Below are positions 30,001-33,000 of a stretch of 64,000 nucleotides of DNA, one piece after another. The stretch spans positions 2,016,001-2,080,000 of the forward strand of contig CAVZZO010000001.1 in the NCBI GenBank assembly GCA_963779755.1. Direction: 5' to 3'. Position numbers: made by a program. This DNA comes from an uncultured Gemmatimonadales bacterium (GTDB lineage Bacteria > Gemmatimonadota > Gemmatimonadetes > Gemmatimonadales > GWC2-71-9). How positions within the stretch are numbered: position 1 is the stretch's first letter; each line of letters opens with the position of its first letter.

Positions 30001-33000
30001 CCCATCCTTCCACGAGGTAGCCGACCAGGTGCTGGCGGCGCTCGCCGGCCGGGTATTCGTCGCGCACAACGCGCGCTTCGACTGGCGTTTCGTGGATGCG
30101 GAGGTCCGGCGTTCCCGCGCCCTGGCGCTGGACGGCACCCGGCTCTGCACCGTCCGGCTGGCCCGCCGGCTGCTGCCGGGGCCGCGTTCCTGCGGCCTCG
30201 ATGCGCTGAGCCGCTTCTTCGGGTTCGACAACCCGGCGCGCCATCGCGCCGGCGGCGACGCGCTGGTCACCGCCTGGTTGTTGCAGCGGCTGCTGGGGCT
30301 GGCCGGCGAGCGGGGTGTGGGGACGCTGGAAGAGCTGGGGGCGCTATGACCCTGACGCACGATTTCCATGTCGGATCGCTGCGCTGCTTCACCCTGGAAG
30401 GCGGGCGGCAGCGGCTGGACGGCGGCGCCATGTTCGGCGTCGTTCCCAAGCCGCTGTGGGAGCGGCGCATCCCGGCCGATGCGCGCAATCGCATTCCGCT
30501 GGCGCTGCGCTGCCTGCTCATCGAGCATCCCGAAGGGCTGGTCCTGGTGGATACCGGGCTGGGCAACAAGGAAGATTCGAAATTCCGCGATATCTACGGC
30601 GTGGAGAACCAAGGCGCCTCCGGCGCGACCCAGCTGGAAGACGCGCTGCTGGACCTGGGGTACCGGCCGGAAGAGGTGCGGTGGGTGATCAACACGCATC
30701 TGCATTTTGATCACGCGGGGGGGAATACCCGGGCGGCAGGACGGCAAGGCGGCGGGACGGCAGGCGAGGCGCAGCTTTCCTTCCCCAATGCGACCTACAT
30801 GGTGCAGCGGCGGGAGCTGGAGTTTGCCCGGCACACCAACGAGCGCACCCGGGCGAGCTATCTGCCGCACAACTGGGAGCCGGTGGCCGCGGCCGGCCGC
30901 TGGCGGTTGCTGGAAGGCGACGAGGAGGTGCTCCCCGGGATTTCCGTGCGGCTCACGCCCGGGCACATCCCCTTTCATCAGTCGGTTCTGGTGCGCGATC
31001 ACGGGCAGACCGCCTGCTTTCTGGGCGATCTGATCCCCACCTCGGCCCACCTGCCGCTGGCCTGGATCATGGGCTACGATCTGGAGCCGCTGCGGACACT
31101 GGAGACCAGGCGGACGCTCCTGCCCCAGGCGGCAGCCGAGGGTTGGCGGCTCATCTTCGAGCACGACCCGGTGGTGGTCGACGGCATCGCGCGGCAGGAA
31201 GCGAAGGCGGTGGGACTGACCGACGTGACGACCGTTGAGAGAACTGAAGAACAGGACTGAGGACTGAGGACTGAGTATCTTCCCGTCCTGCCGTCCTGCC
31301 GTCCTGCCGTCCTGCCGTCCTGCCGTCCTGCCGTCCTGCCGTCCTGCCGTCCTGCCGTCCTGCCGTCCTGCCGTCCTGCCGTCCTGCCGTCCTGCCGTCC
31401 TGCCGTCCTGCCGTCCTGCCGTCCTGCCGTCCTGCCGTCCTGCCGTCCTGCCGTCCTGCCGTCCTGCCGTCCTGCCGTCCTGCCGTCCTGCGACCGAGCG
31501 GCCTCCAATAGAAAGCCGCGAGGAAGTCCTTTAGGGCCGTCCTGCCGTCCTGCGACCGAGCGGCCTCCAATAGAAAGCCGCGAGGAAGTCCTTTAGGGCC
31601 GTCCTGCCCGCCTTGCCGTACTCTCGCCCATCTCATAGCTTCTCCCTTCGCATCGCAGGATGCACCCCGTCCGCGGGAAGGGATCATCCCACCTGTGCTG
31701 TTCGAGGATCAGTCCTGACCCTCTTCTGCCCGTCATTCGCGGACACCGGGCGCTATGGAAGGGGGAGCCATGACCCGCCGTCTGCCTGCACGTCCCAGTC
31801 TCGAACATCTTCGTAAACAGGCCAGGCAACTGCTGCGCGGGGTGCAGCAGGGCAACCCGGAGGCGTGTGAGCGCCTGCGCTCGCTGCTGCCGCCGCCGCT
31901 GCCCGACGAGCCCAGGCTGGCCGACGCGCAACGCGCCATCGCCCGGGAGTATGGGTTTCCCGGCTGGGGCCGGCTCAAGGCCCGGGTGGAGGAGTTGGAC
32001 CGCGCCGCCGATCCGGCGGCCCGGCTGGTGGATGCGGTGAAGGCCGGGTCGGCCACGCGGGTCCGCGCCGTCCTGCAGCAATCGCCGGCGCTGGCGGCGC
32101 GGCTGAACGAGCCGCTGCCCGGTTTCGGCTTCGGCGGCACTGCGCTGCTGCACGCAGTCTCCCACGGCAAGCTGGAACTGGTGGATGTGCTGCTCGATGC
32201 CGGGGCCGACATCAACCAACGCAGCCATTGGTGGGCCGGCGGCTTCGGCGTGCTGGACGACGACGGCGGTCTGGCGCCGCAGCTCATCGCGCGCGGCGCG
32301 CGAGTCGACATCCACGCCGCCGTGCGGCTGGAGATGCGCGAGCGGGTGGAGGCGCTCCTCCGTCAATCGCCGGAGCTGGTGCATGCGCGGGGCGGCGACG
32401 GCCAGACCCCGCTGCACGTCGCACCTACCGTCGAGATGGCCGCCCTGCTGCTGGAGGCCGGGGCGGACATCGATGCCCGGGATGTCGACCACGAGTCCAC
32501 TCCGGCGCAGTACATGGTGCGGGACCGGCAGGGGGTGGCGCGGCATCTCGTGGCGCGCGGATGCCGGACGGACATCCTGATGGCGGCCGCCCTGGGCGAT
32601 CTGGCGCTGGTGCGCGAGTACCTGGACCGGGACCCTTCCAGCCTCCGCACCGAGGTATCGGAGCGGTACTTCCCCCGGCAGAACATCCACAGCGGCGCCA
32701 CCATCTACCTCTGGACCCTGGGCAATCACAAGACGGCGCACCTGGTGGCGCGGGAGTTCGGCCACGAGGACATCCTGCAGCTTCTGCTGGAGCGAAGCCC
32801 GGAAGACCTCCGGCTGGCGGTGGCGAGCGAGCTGGGAGACGAGCCGCTCGGCCGCCGGTTTCTGAAGGCGCGGCCCGGATCAGGGATGGAGATTCCCGAC
32901 AGCGACCGTCGCCGCGTGGCCATCGCCGCGCAGAACAACAATGGCGACGCGGTGCGGTTGCTGCTGGAGGGGGGCTGGCCCGCCACAAGCCGGGGCCAGC

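Follow-up and report, generated by a model that had tools for sequence, protein, structure and literature searches.

In some bacterial genomes, few unexplained features are as common as tandem arrays of heptamers and octamers, a puzzle that goes back to their description in cyanobacteria and Xanthomonas. The cyanobacterial STRRs are tandem intergenic heptanucleotides, with several unit families per genome. Proteobacteria carry another class of repeat, the REP/BIME elements and REPINs, which are short imperfect palindromes with dozens of extragenic copies. Xanthomonas and Nostoc have G-rich heptamer repeats, GGGAATC in the former and GGGGA(C/T)T (GGGGAYT) in the latter, that obey a strand rule: immediately past a stop codon it is the coding strand that is rich in G, whereas shortly ahead of a start codon it is the non-coding one (passages of Rehm 2015, PLoS One, PMC4692102). 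The same passages cite three tandem heptanucleotides of Calothrix PCC 7601 and the survey by Mrazek, Guo and Shah (2007) of long simple sequence repeats with units of 5-11 nt, which in the passages citing it stays at survey level, with no polarity rule or composite element (Rehm 2015, PMC4692102). Finally, TAACTGA direct repeats are described from marine Beggiatoaceae, Cyanobacteria and Bacteroidetes (MacGregor 2015, PMC4679880).

Here, we studied arrays of this kind in an uncultured Gemmatimonadales bacterium (GCA_963779755.1, contig CAVZZO010000001.1), centering on a window, a stretch of 64,000 nucleotides. The host is a soil bacterium. Its arrays are G-rich long simple sequence repeats of 7 or 8 nt, a class already known from the Xanthomonas and Nostoc heptamers and the cyanobacterial STRRs. 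The STRR-like label given by the first-pass annotation therefore stands, since the arrays show the traits published for the G-rich heptamer repeats, as given by the passages considered here (PMC4692102). Both sets comprise perfect arrays of up to 26 units spread genome-wide, which are enriched in non-coding DNA, scarce where ORFs diverge, may overlap stop codons, form inverted pairs on occasion and follow the strand-and-distance polarity rule. One minor unit of our genome, GGGAATC (7 arrays), is even identical to that of Xanthomonas. There are also differences from those passages: 88 canonical units occur here instead of one consensus, about one array in three is built of octamers, which extends the definition of the class, GG rather than GGG or GGGG is found in the dominant units, and the preference for four units is absent. 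Moreover, Rehm et al. generally found no association of the Xanthomonas and Nostoc repeats with mobile elements, whereas our main octamer surrounds a dispersed hairpin core (PMC4692102). The TAACTGA repeats resemble our arrays in their abundance in intergenic regions near gene boundaries and in their patchy phylogenetic spread, but differ in having a single A/T-rich unit, mostly in 2-6 copies, placed in sense orientation a few nucleotides upstream of start codons (PMC4679880). The arrays also share with the cyanobacterial STRRs a tandem, intergenic arrangement and several unit families, but they belong to another phylum, have prominent octamers and use unrelated units. What this genome adds to the known systems is a hairpin core linked to one unit, complementarity between paired arrays, and a polarity that is independent of stop codons and of the direction of replication or transcription.

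We searched the whole genome for arrays with TRF, requiring at least 4 copies and at least 85% matches. Periods 7 and 8 yielded 195 and 90 rows, as against 12 and 30 for periods 6 and 9; after merging, periods 6-9 amount to 327 rows, 316 loci and 15.9 kb. These values are close to the 317 rows, 290 loci and 15.8 kb reported previously, including the excess of periods 7 and 8 (191 and 89 rows in that count). As before, a genome shuffled in 200-bp blocks gave no rows, here at periods 6-10; it gave 7 rows at period 5. The same four units lead the census, namely the GGACGGCA type (42 arrays), GGAATCA (25), GAGCGGT (23) and GGACTGA (22), with counts that are lower than the earlier ones because overlapping rows are excluded. 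All four carry GG only, while GGG or longer runs are found in some minor units. Perfect runs of 2 to 6 copies number 180, 93, 45, 26 and 10 for period 7 and 57, 36, 21, 6 and 2 for period 8; for period 6 they drop from 200 to 19 to 1. Copy numbers thus fall geometrically and monotonically, and four units form no peak. An overlap at 99.4-99.8% identity joins contigs C2, C4 and the start of C3; the overlapping ends, 20 kb in all, differ solely by single-base indels and are uninformative on copy-number variation of the arrays.

The arrays are concentrated at gene boundaries. With a rough gene prediction of our own, which gave 3508 genes and a coding share of 87%, we placed 219 of 322 arrays in intergenic regions, 61 across a gene end and 42 within a called gene, so that 280/322 lie outside gene interiors although spacers make up 13% of the genome. 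Those outside genes are mostly at 3' ends, and some run across the start or the end of a gene. Arrays lie a median of 4 bp from a 3' end and 23 bp from a 5' end, in line with the proximity to gene ends already noted (14 bp to the nearest end). Divergent spacers hold just 33 of the 280 non-genic arrays, yet account for 26% of spacer bases; arrays persist where a spacer lacks divergent promoters and almost nowhere else. Arrays within genes occupy variable loops only. Among the in-frame arrays of the first-pass annotation, those in carB, uvrA, lhr (two arrays) and a dnaE-like gene were confirmed with Pfam, and their position in variable linkers of housekeeping proteins holds. Two further genes, of the acrB type by Pfam, also carry in-frame arrays.

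The polarity of the arrays relative to the nearest gene boundary is strict. Of the 193 arrays lying within 40 bp of a boundary, 167 have a G-rich strand that points away from the gene in the 5' to 3' sense (102/122 at 3' ends and 65/71 at 5' ends). The rule fits all six array-bearing spacers of the window, and it is obeyed by 20/20 arrays in two relatives of other genera, G017 and G038. Beyond 40 bp from a gene the polarity fades (30 arrays obey and 45 violate the rule); the rule depends on gene proximity and not on the halves of the spacer. Polarity follows G/C content, and units lacking a stop codon on either strand are still polar (45 vs 6 at 3' ends and 38 vs 3 at 5' ends), which rules out the supply of stop codons as its cause. 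Other explanations can be set aside here as well. Replication does not account for the rule, since the G-rich strand is leading in 141 arrays and lagging in 166 (p 0.17, with origin and terminus set from GC skew and C1 and C3 taken as two replichores), nor does an overall bias toward one transcribed strand (118 vs 116). Loss of mismatch repair, Ku and a reverse transcriptase making the arrays were also rejected: MutS was found in 4/4 genomes, Ku is absent from the array-rich G038 and present in the array-free G031, and RVT_1 (PF00078) occurs in 0/4 genomes. For polar growth of the arrays the evidence is mixed: flanks show a weak asymmetry, the one 5' of the G strand being slightly more repeat-like (55 vs 25), but variant units inside arrays have no internal polarity to match it (241 vs 245 mismatches; 59 vs 54 arrays). 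We also found Rho, which we considered as a reader of C-rich RNA; a Synechococcus control gave no Rho match. To our knowledge, cyanobacteria lack Rho, yet Nostoc obeys the same rule, so Rho cannot be the general cause of the polarity. This genome represents a third, unrelated phylum with gene-boundary polarity of the Xanthomonas and Nostoc type. The recurrence of the same rule in three distant phyla suggests a common cause, and shows a general property that calls for an explanation.

Fixed polarity at genes means that two arrays sharing a spacer read G-rich and then C-rich on either strand. Neighbouring arrays do show this order in 51 pairs, against 1 pair with the C-rich array first. Among the equal-period pairs in G-then-C order, 25/39 are complementary at no more than 1 mismatch per unit, where 2000 permutations gave 4.9 on average and never more than 14. 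The inverted pairs described earlier are thus real. The arrays of the spacer at 15652..15849, for instance, are near-complementary (1 mismatch per unit). Most spacers examined contain non-complementary arrays, and the RNA of the focal spacer folds worse than its shuffles (z +5.3; 100/100 shuffles fold better). Most arrays are therefore not accounted for by hairpins.

The features of the focal locus are listed in Table 1. Its main array, previously noted for its 26 copies, consists of 26.1 units of CCGTCCTG with 100% matches and exceeds every other GGACGGCA-type run of the genome in length. It is followed by two copies of a 45-nt hairpin core, and the second of these is included in a higher-order repeat of 62 bp (2.2 copies, 31474-31608; TRF period 62, 100% matches). 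The focal array is one arm of a composite repeat and not a free-standing microsatellite. On its other side, the short heptamer array that begins at the stop codon of the metallo-beta-lactamase-fold (MBL-fold) gene is paired, in the predicted RNA fold, with octamer units one to three. The array inside the MBL-fold gene is in frame and encodes AAGRQGGGTAG in a length-variable loop; between the motifs HFDHAGGNT and FPNATY, both length and sequence of the loop vary in an alignment with 8 orthologues. Relatives have infC after the MBL-fold gene and no ankyrin-repeat gene at this place; the N terminus of IF-3 is encoded downstream of the MBL-fold gene in 6/8 relatives read. At the stop codon of the orthologous gene, an array was present in 1/8 relatives read (G007), made of an unrelated octamer.

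Table 1. Features of the focal locus and of the other array-bearing spacers, in window coordinates
Feature	Position	Strand	Evidence
Metallo-beta-lactamase-fold gene	30346..31260	+	Own gene call; Pfam Lactamase_B, E 8e-22
Degenerate GGACGGCA-type octamer array in the MBL-fold gene	30732..30766	+	TRF rows 30732-30766, 30734-30764
(AGGACTG)3.3 array, G-rich on sense strand, begins at MBL stop codon	31253..31275	+	TRF 100% matches
Focal array, + strand (CCGTCCTG)26.1, - strand (GGACGGCA)n, perfect	31283..31491	-	Sequence, TRF
45-nt hairpin core copy 1, abuts focal array	31492..31536	-	blastn query, 100% by construction
Two octamer units separating the core copies	31537..31553	-	TRF 31536-31553
45-nt hairpin core copy 2	31554..31598	-	blastn 100%
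Ankyrin-repeat gene	31842..33272; alternative start 31755	+	Pfam Ank_2, Ank
Spacer: (AGGTCGA)7.3 (G-rich, left), then C-rich (TCCTGCCG)19.9 and (CCTCATT)6.4, right	2397..2715	.	TRF
Spacer: (GGACTGA)2.6, core 5454-5500 (+), (GCAGGACG)2.4, C-rich (CCCGGCC)4.3 and (CCTGATT)6.4	5429..5671	.	TRF, blastn
Spacer: (GGCGGTAAG)5.1, 28-bp repeat x2, (CGACCTG)4.6, (GCGACTA)4	15107..15304	.	TRF
Spacer: (GGACTGA)2.9 after stop codon, (CTCAATC)10.4 before next start	15652..15849	.	TRF
(TGCCGTCC)5.0, C-rich on sense strand, 12 bp upstream of next gene	24230..24269	-	TRF

The hairpin core is itself a dispersed repeat. Including the query, blastn found 41 matches in the genome (37 at full length, at 26 loci) and nhmmer added 8 more, giving about 45 copies in all, at a minimum of 26 loci. 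At least two octamer units lie within 24 nt of 33/37 cores, and the orientations of core and array agree in 43/43 cases; conversely, a core is found within 150 bp of only 33/98 GGACGGCA runs. The core is the abridged version of a longer palindromic element, 60 nt in size, that related Gemmatimonadaceae carry among octamers of the same type. In these relatives, 12 copies of the long form fold into a two-tier hairpin with one covarying pair, and 11/12 are flanked on both sides by GCAGNCGG-type octamers. Cores are at differing loci in G007, G081 and G135. In G135, one 60-nt core lies in the reading frame of an IPMDH-like gene, while the same codon position is empty in its congener G007 (the two proteins are 81% identical, with a 20-residue gap). 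Judging from the two sequences, this filled and empty site appears to record a movement of the core, in one case. The empty site of G007 already holds G-rich octamers, and the core may home to pre-existing arrays rather than spread them. Tests for a MITE were negative, in that by eye we saw no duplicated bases or extra unit between the filled and the empty site, and the ends of the core are not inverted copies of each other. Of the three PF01797 (Y1 transposase) ORFs of the genome, none has a core within 5 kb, and a search for TnpB in relation to the core found none; no transposase was thus linked to the core among the PF01797 and TnpB genes looked for. Rfam had no family matching the core or the arrays in the window and in the loci of five relatives, and the core was not found in viral contigs. 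A 17-nt word of the core had 117 matches among genome contigs, nearly all by chance in unrelated phyla and real only in L012 and L052. The core resembles REP, BIME and REPIN sequences as a short imperfect palindrome that is dispersed, forms tandem higher-order units, sits at gene 3' ends and has no detected target duplication. It differs from REPs and REPINs in residing within octamer arrays only and in having one copy in frame within a gene of a relative (G135); furthermore, the RAYT-like PF01797 ORF of this genome (C1:953122-953565) is flanked by a different hairpin family. A core embedded in arrays provides a handle on how one unit can spread through a genome and into protein loops.

The distribution among relatives is patchy. 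The search for (GGACGGCA)4 reproduced exactly the first-pass counts, with 111 matches in this genome (34 forward and 77 reverse) and 1-3 matches in 4/150 other genomes of the family, and the units are largely species-specific, as had been proposed. Two of three relatives with long contigs carry arrays of other units at a density like that seen here, 11 in 140 kb of G017 and 11 in 160 kb of G038, with 0 in 160 kb of G031. Searches of the literature on repeats in gemmatimonads returned no account of these arrays among the 12 best-ranked of 11,744 matching papers.

How could these arrays have arisen, and what could they do? The account that we find the more credible, and regard as probable with real reservations, combines arrays born by slippage, their polarity at genes, a role at transcript ends and a composite core. 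Arrays would be born and resized in place by strand slippage, with units becoming homogenised within an array and different between species. RNA transcribed across such a spacer, whichever way, could then form a repeat-built hairpin, and these hairpins might mark or insulate transcript ends, by analogy with the REP/BIME elements of enterobacteria. The core and the octamers may have spread together, or the core may home to the octamers; either would explain the top abundance of this octamer and its many loci. A neighbouring interpretation, which we hold to be rather unlikely, makes the octamer arrays and the core a single self-propagating “mobile microsatellite” and leaves the polarity to a general bacterial mechanism that may orient G-rich repeats at gene boundaries. 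The core would travel with, or home to, GCAGNCGG-type octamers and seed further arrays both at the ends of genes and, in frame, in the loops of proteins, and recombination between the flanking repeats would then remove the core to leave solo arrays. Compared with both, the arrays could also be neutral debris of slippage without a cellular role, their placement and polarity being the imprint of purifying selection at gene boundaries. This has a modest chance of being right. The geometric copy numbers, the species-specific units present in only some relatives, the scarcity in divergent spacers, the confinement of genic arrays to variable loops and the restriction of the rule to 40 bp from a gene all fit it well. 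Yet a filter acting through stop codons fails, as the stop-free units obey the rule at 3' ends (45 vs 6) and at 5' ends (38 vs 3). Complementary pairs share rare units five times above chance, which pure debris does not predict, and the same rule in three distant phyla suggests a common cause.

The slippage account with a role at transcript ends must also be weighed against more specialised mechanisms. G-quadruplex or i-motif switches that regulate adjacent genes, a role put forward for the repeats of Xanthomonas and Nostoc, would match the distribution of arrays, which is that of repeats forming G4 in vitro in the passages of Rehm 2015 (PMC4692102), and (GGACGGCA)n has a GG tract every 4 nt. 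But the dominant units have GG runs and not GGG or GGGG, many have a single GG per 7 nt, and the preference for four units that is the main argument in those passages (PMC4692102) is missing, making such switches improbable. It is very improbable that the arrays come from a telomerase-like or end-healing synthesis, adding G-rich units to the 3' ends on both sides of a break. This would produce the G-then-C order seen in 51 pairs against 1, and the units do look telomeric, with a G cluster and an A/T tail, in arrays flush with gene ends and with a slightly more repeat-like flank 5' of the G strand. Against it, RVT_1 is missing from all four genomes searched (G000, G017, G038 and G031, three of them array-rich), the array-rich G038 lacks the Ku that the array-free G031 has, variant units show no polarity inside arrays, the rule is tied to gene proximity instead of spacer halves, and 88 units would demand many templates. 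Phase variation, by frameshift or by a change in promoter spacing, has an equally slight chance. With 7 or 8 nt, a unit shifts the reading frame, and some arrays extend over the start or the end of a gene; however, 280/322 arrays are outside genes and mostly at 3' ends, the spacers with divergent promoters are depleted, and the confident genic arrays are in frame in the housekeeping genes carB, uvrA, lhr, acrB and dnaE-like. The passages of Rehm 2015 (PMC4692102) are likewise negative on this point.

These arrays have practical consequences too. They break short-read assemblies and gene calls in Gemmatimonadota, and annotators should expect genes ending inside arrays. At the focal locus, the TGA stop codon of the MBL-fold gene (31258-31260) falls within the first (GGACTGA) unit of the array.

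The 4.23-Mb assembly (68.5% G+C, four contigs) carries a class of long simple sequence repeats with G-rich units of 7 and 8 nt. A genome-wide TRF search, retaining arrays with at least 4 copies and at least 85% matches, returned 12, 195, 90, and 30 rows at periods 6, 7, 8, and 9, i.e., 327 rows in 316 loci covering 15.9 kb. The genome shuffled in 200-bp blocks gave none at periods 6 to 10. The arrays are built from 88 canonical units, the commonest being GGACGGCA (42 arrays), GGAATCA (25), GAGCGGT (23), and GGACTGA (22). The first-pass annotation had described STRR-like arrays abutting gene ends; its counts are reproduced within the limits of differing merging rules, and its 26-copy array (here the focal array) is indeed perfect. 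The motif (GGACGGCA)4 has 111 matches in this genome; of 150 further genomes from the family, 4 have it, with 1 to 3 matches each. Read backwards without complementing, this unit is a rotation of itself and its arrays are therefore perfect mirror repeats; the backwards control of the search gave 35 and 76 matches, against 34 and 77 for the pattern. These arrays represent, in another lineage, a repeat class that is already published; the best-ranked literature matches (15 of 73 and 12 of 11,744) included no description of such repeats in Gemmatimonadota.

Most arrays lie at or near gene ends. Genes were called with a simple ORF scorer based on codon usage, which gave 3508 genes, a coding share of 87%, and approximate starts. 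After removal of redundancy there were 322 arrays: 219 in intergenic DNA, 61 overlapping the end of a gene, and 42 within called genes. For 161 arrays the closest gene end is 3′, at a median distance of 4 bp; for 119 it is 5′, at a median of 23 bp. Although they contribute 26% of spacer bases, spacers between divergent genes contain only 33 of 280 arrays. For many genes the array contains the end of the gene itself, and in the window the TGA stop of a metallo-beta-lactamase-fold (MBL-fold) gene, left of the focal array, is part of the first GGACTGA unit. In-frame arrays in housekeeping genes were borne out by Pfam: one at residues 479-489 of carB, two in lhr, one between two domains of uvrA, and others in a dnaE-like gene and in two acrB-type transporters.

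The arrays are also polar. In 167 of 193 arrays located 40 bp or less from a gene boundary, the 5′-to-3′ direction of the G-rich strand points away from the gene (102/122 at 3′ ends and 65/71 at 5′ ends). The rule fades beyond 40 bp, where 30 arrays keep it and 45 break it. Each of the 6 array-bearing spacers of the window goes from G-rich at left to C-rich at right, and in DNA sampled from two other genera with long contigs, 20/20 boundary-proximal arrays follow the rule. Rehm 2015 (PMC4692102) describes the same polarity for repeats of Xanthomonas and Nostoc, which are likewise scarce between divergent ORFs and overlap stop codons. What we add is that the polarity is quantified, independent of stop codons, and replicated in two further genera.

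What could form or orient the arrays? The supply of stop codons was set aside, since units lacking a stop on either strand still obey the rule (45 versus 6 at 3′ ends and 38 versus 3 at 5′ ends). When the stop lies on the C-rich strand, it is G-richness that decides (11 versus 4 at 3′ ends and 16 versus 1 at 5′ ends). Replication direction, with arrays divided 141 versus 166, and overall transcription direction, at 118 versus 116, were set aside as well. The same applies to a reverse transcriptase, found in 0/4 genomes, and to Ku and the loss of MutS, both tested. Rho is present in this genome; to our knowledge, cyanobacteria lack it, though they follow the rule. GC skew identifies contigs C1 and C3 as the two replichores of a single chromosome, with the origin near C1:310 kb and the terminus near the end of C1 and the start of C3. 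Contig C4 overlaps with C2 for 12.3 kb at 99.8% identity and with the start of C3, reversed, for 8.2 kb at 99.4%; the only differences are single-base indels, clustered at a contig end. All four contigs probably belong to a single circular chromosome, incompletely merged.

Features of the focal locus, in coordinates of the window, which spans C1:2016001-2080000
Feature	Position	Remark
Ankyrin-repeat gene and arrays separating the MBL-fold gene from infC	31261-33560	
Focal array, (CCGTCCTG)26.1	31283-31491	zero mismatches
Core copy 1	31492-31536	directly beside focal array
Core copy 2	31554-31598	
Ankyrin-repeat gene	31842-33272	between MBL-fold gene and infC

In sequences flanking GGACGGCA runs there is a conserved hairpin element of 45 nt, the core, which adjoins the focal array and, with two octamer units, forms a 62-bp repeat reported by TRF. 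The genome has 41 blastn hits to it (37 full length, in 26 loci), and nhmmer added 8 copies. Cores and arrays are associated: 33 of the 37 full-length cores lie within 24 nt of two or more octamer units, 14 of these cores having them on both sides, and core orientation matches that of the G-rich strand in 43/43. Conversely, a core lies within 150 bp of 33/98 GGACGGCA runs and of 6 of the 13 longest. No cores were found in this genome's arrays of other units, and Rfam gave no match.

Outside this genome, a gapped pattern of the core ends recovered the core in 4 of 400 other family genomes (1 to 3 copies each; 3 of the 4 belong to one genus) and in 7 metagenome loci, but in no viral contigs. These copies are 60 nt long, with identical ends and an additional inner stem; the consensus is predicted to fold into a two-tier hairpin in which a single base pair covaries, being A-U in 7 sequences and G-C in 4. 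Short GCAGNCGG-type octamer arrays, varying by locus, surround 11 of 12 copies, and several have a TAG stop directly 5′. One relative carries the 60 nt in frame within an IPMDH-like gene, at a loop; in a congeneric species this gene, at 81% identity, lacks them and shows a clean 20-residue gap. On sequence comparison, this is one filled-and-empty site, with no visible target duplication. The empty site already has G-rich octamers, so the core may home in on existing arrays of this kind instead of carrying them along. The dominant octamer may have spread together with the core. An array-embedded hairpin core with evidence of movement is new here. As possible mobilizers, this genome has three Y1 (IS200-like) transposases but lacks TnpB; no mobilizing enzyme for the core was found among the candidates, the RAYT-like Y1 being flanked by another hairpin family.

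Neighboring arrays can form hairpins too. The 474 arrays of period 7 or 8 that have three copies or more include 88 neighbor pairs within 300 bp, 51 of them in G-then-C order and 1 in C-then-G order. Of the 39 equal-period G-then-C pairs, 25 are complementary with at most one mismatch per unit, in excess of chance (mean 4.9, maximum 14 in 2000 random re-pairings). Hence the repeat-built hairpins which the first-pass annotation had seen in inverted pairs are real, but most arrays do not form them. In the focal spacer, for one, pairing involves only (GGACUGA)3 and octamer units 1 to 3, and the remaining C-rich RNA of the 26-unit array is less structured than 100/100 shuffles (z +5.3). Complementary pairs and the core hairpin could provide transcript-end or insulating structures in both directions.

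Copy numbers of perfect runs fall geometrically (180, 93, 45, 26, 10 and onward at period 7), with no peak at four units in this genome. This lack of a four-unit preference is new here and differs from the Xanthomonas and Nostoc repeats, which show one according to Rehm 2015. Variant units have no internal polarity (mismatches 241 versus 245 in array halves), and the 5′ flank of the G strand is slightly more repeat-like than the other (55 versus 25). Arrays could be born and resized by slippage. Of three long-contig relatives, two have about 70 to 80 arrays per Mb, of other units, and the third none within 160 kb; short-read bins had 2 in about 226 kb. Of 8 relatives read at the stop codon of the orthologous MBL-fold gene, one (genome G007) has an array, built from an unrelated octamer. 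To judge from these differences among relatives, arrays are gained repeatedly and recently. In 6 of 8 relatives the MBL-fold gene is directly followed by infC. Here the ankyrin-repeat gene and arrays separate them, so the focal array and cores lie at the edge of an inserted gene. A degenerate octamer array in the MBL-fold gene of the window encodes AAGRQGGGTAG in a protein loop that varies in length and sequence across 8/8 aligned orthologues.

Other dispersed repeats were seen. A Y1 transposase ORF (C1:953122-953565) has on both sides, in direct orientation, an identical hairpin pair (stem CTCGGC, loop TGAA, stem GCCGAG, then a second small hairpin), and resembles a RAYT that has a REP family of its own. 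In a separate family, about 2.8 copies of the 9-mer CGCAGATTA have an inverted copy 107 to 121 bp away, often chained head to tail (e.g., C1:709211-710718 and C1:727444-728119); this is the TACGCAGAT element mentioned in the first-pass annotation. At C3:1396063-1396765 and C3:1175384-1175934, copies of a dispersed element of about 110 to 150 bp, with complementary GGGAGCCA and TGGCTCCC segments, lie between successive GGACTGA arrays, giving higher-order tandem repeats of about 150 to 170 bp; after the core, this is the second instance of arrays mixed with a dispersed palindromic element. Genome-wide intergenic k-mer assembly yielded several further dispersed repeats of 30 to 60 copies, one with stem CCCCCTTCCC, loop TGTT, and stem GGGAAGGGGG, and the hairpins GTCACCCTGAG...GAAGGG and GTCATTGCGAGG...GAAGCAATC, often beside arrays. 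A longer-period family occurs in the window as inverted 14- to 17-bp tandem units (GCGGTAGGGGCGACGCA with its complement, and GGCGGTAGGGGCGA) at 41302-41405 and 51759-51806.
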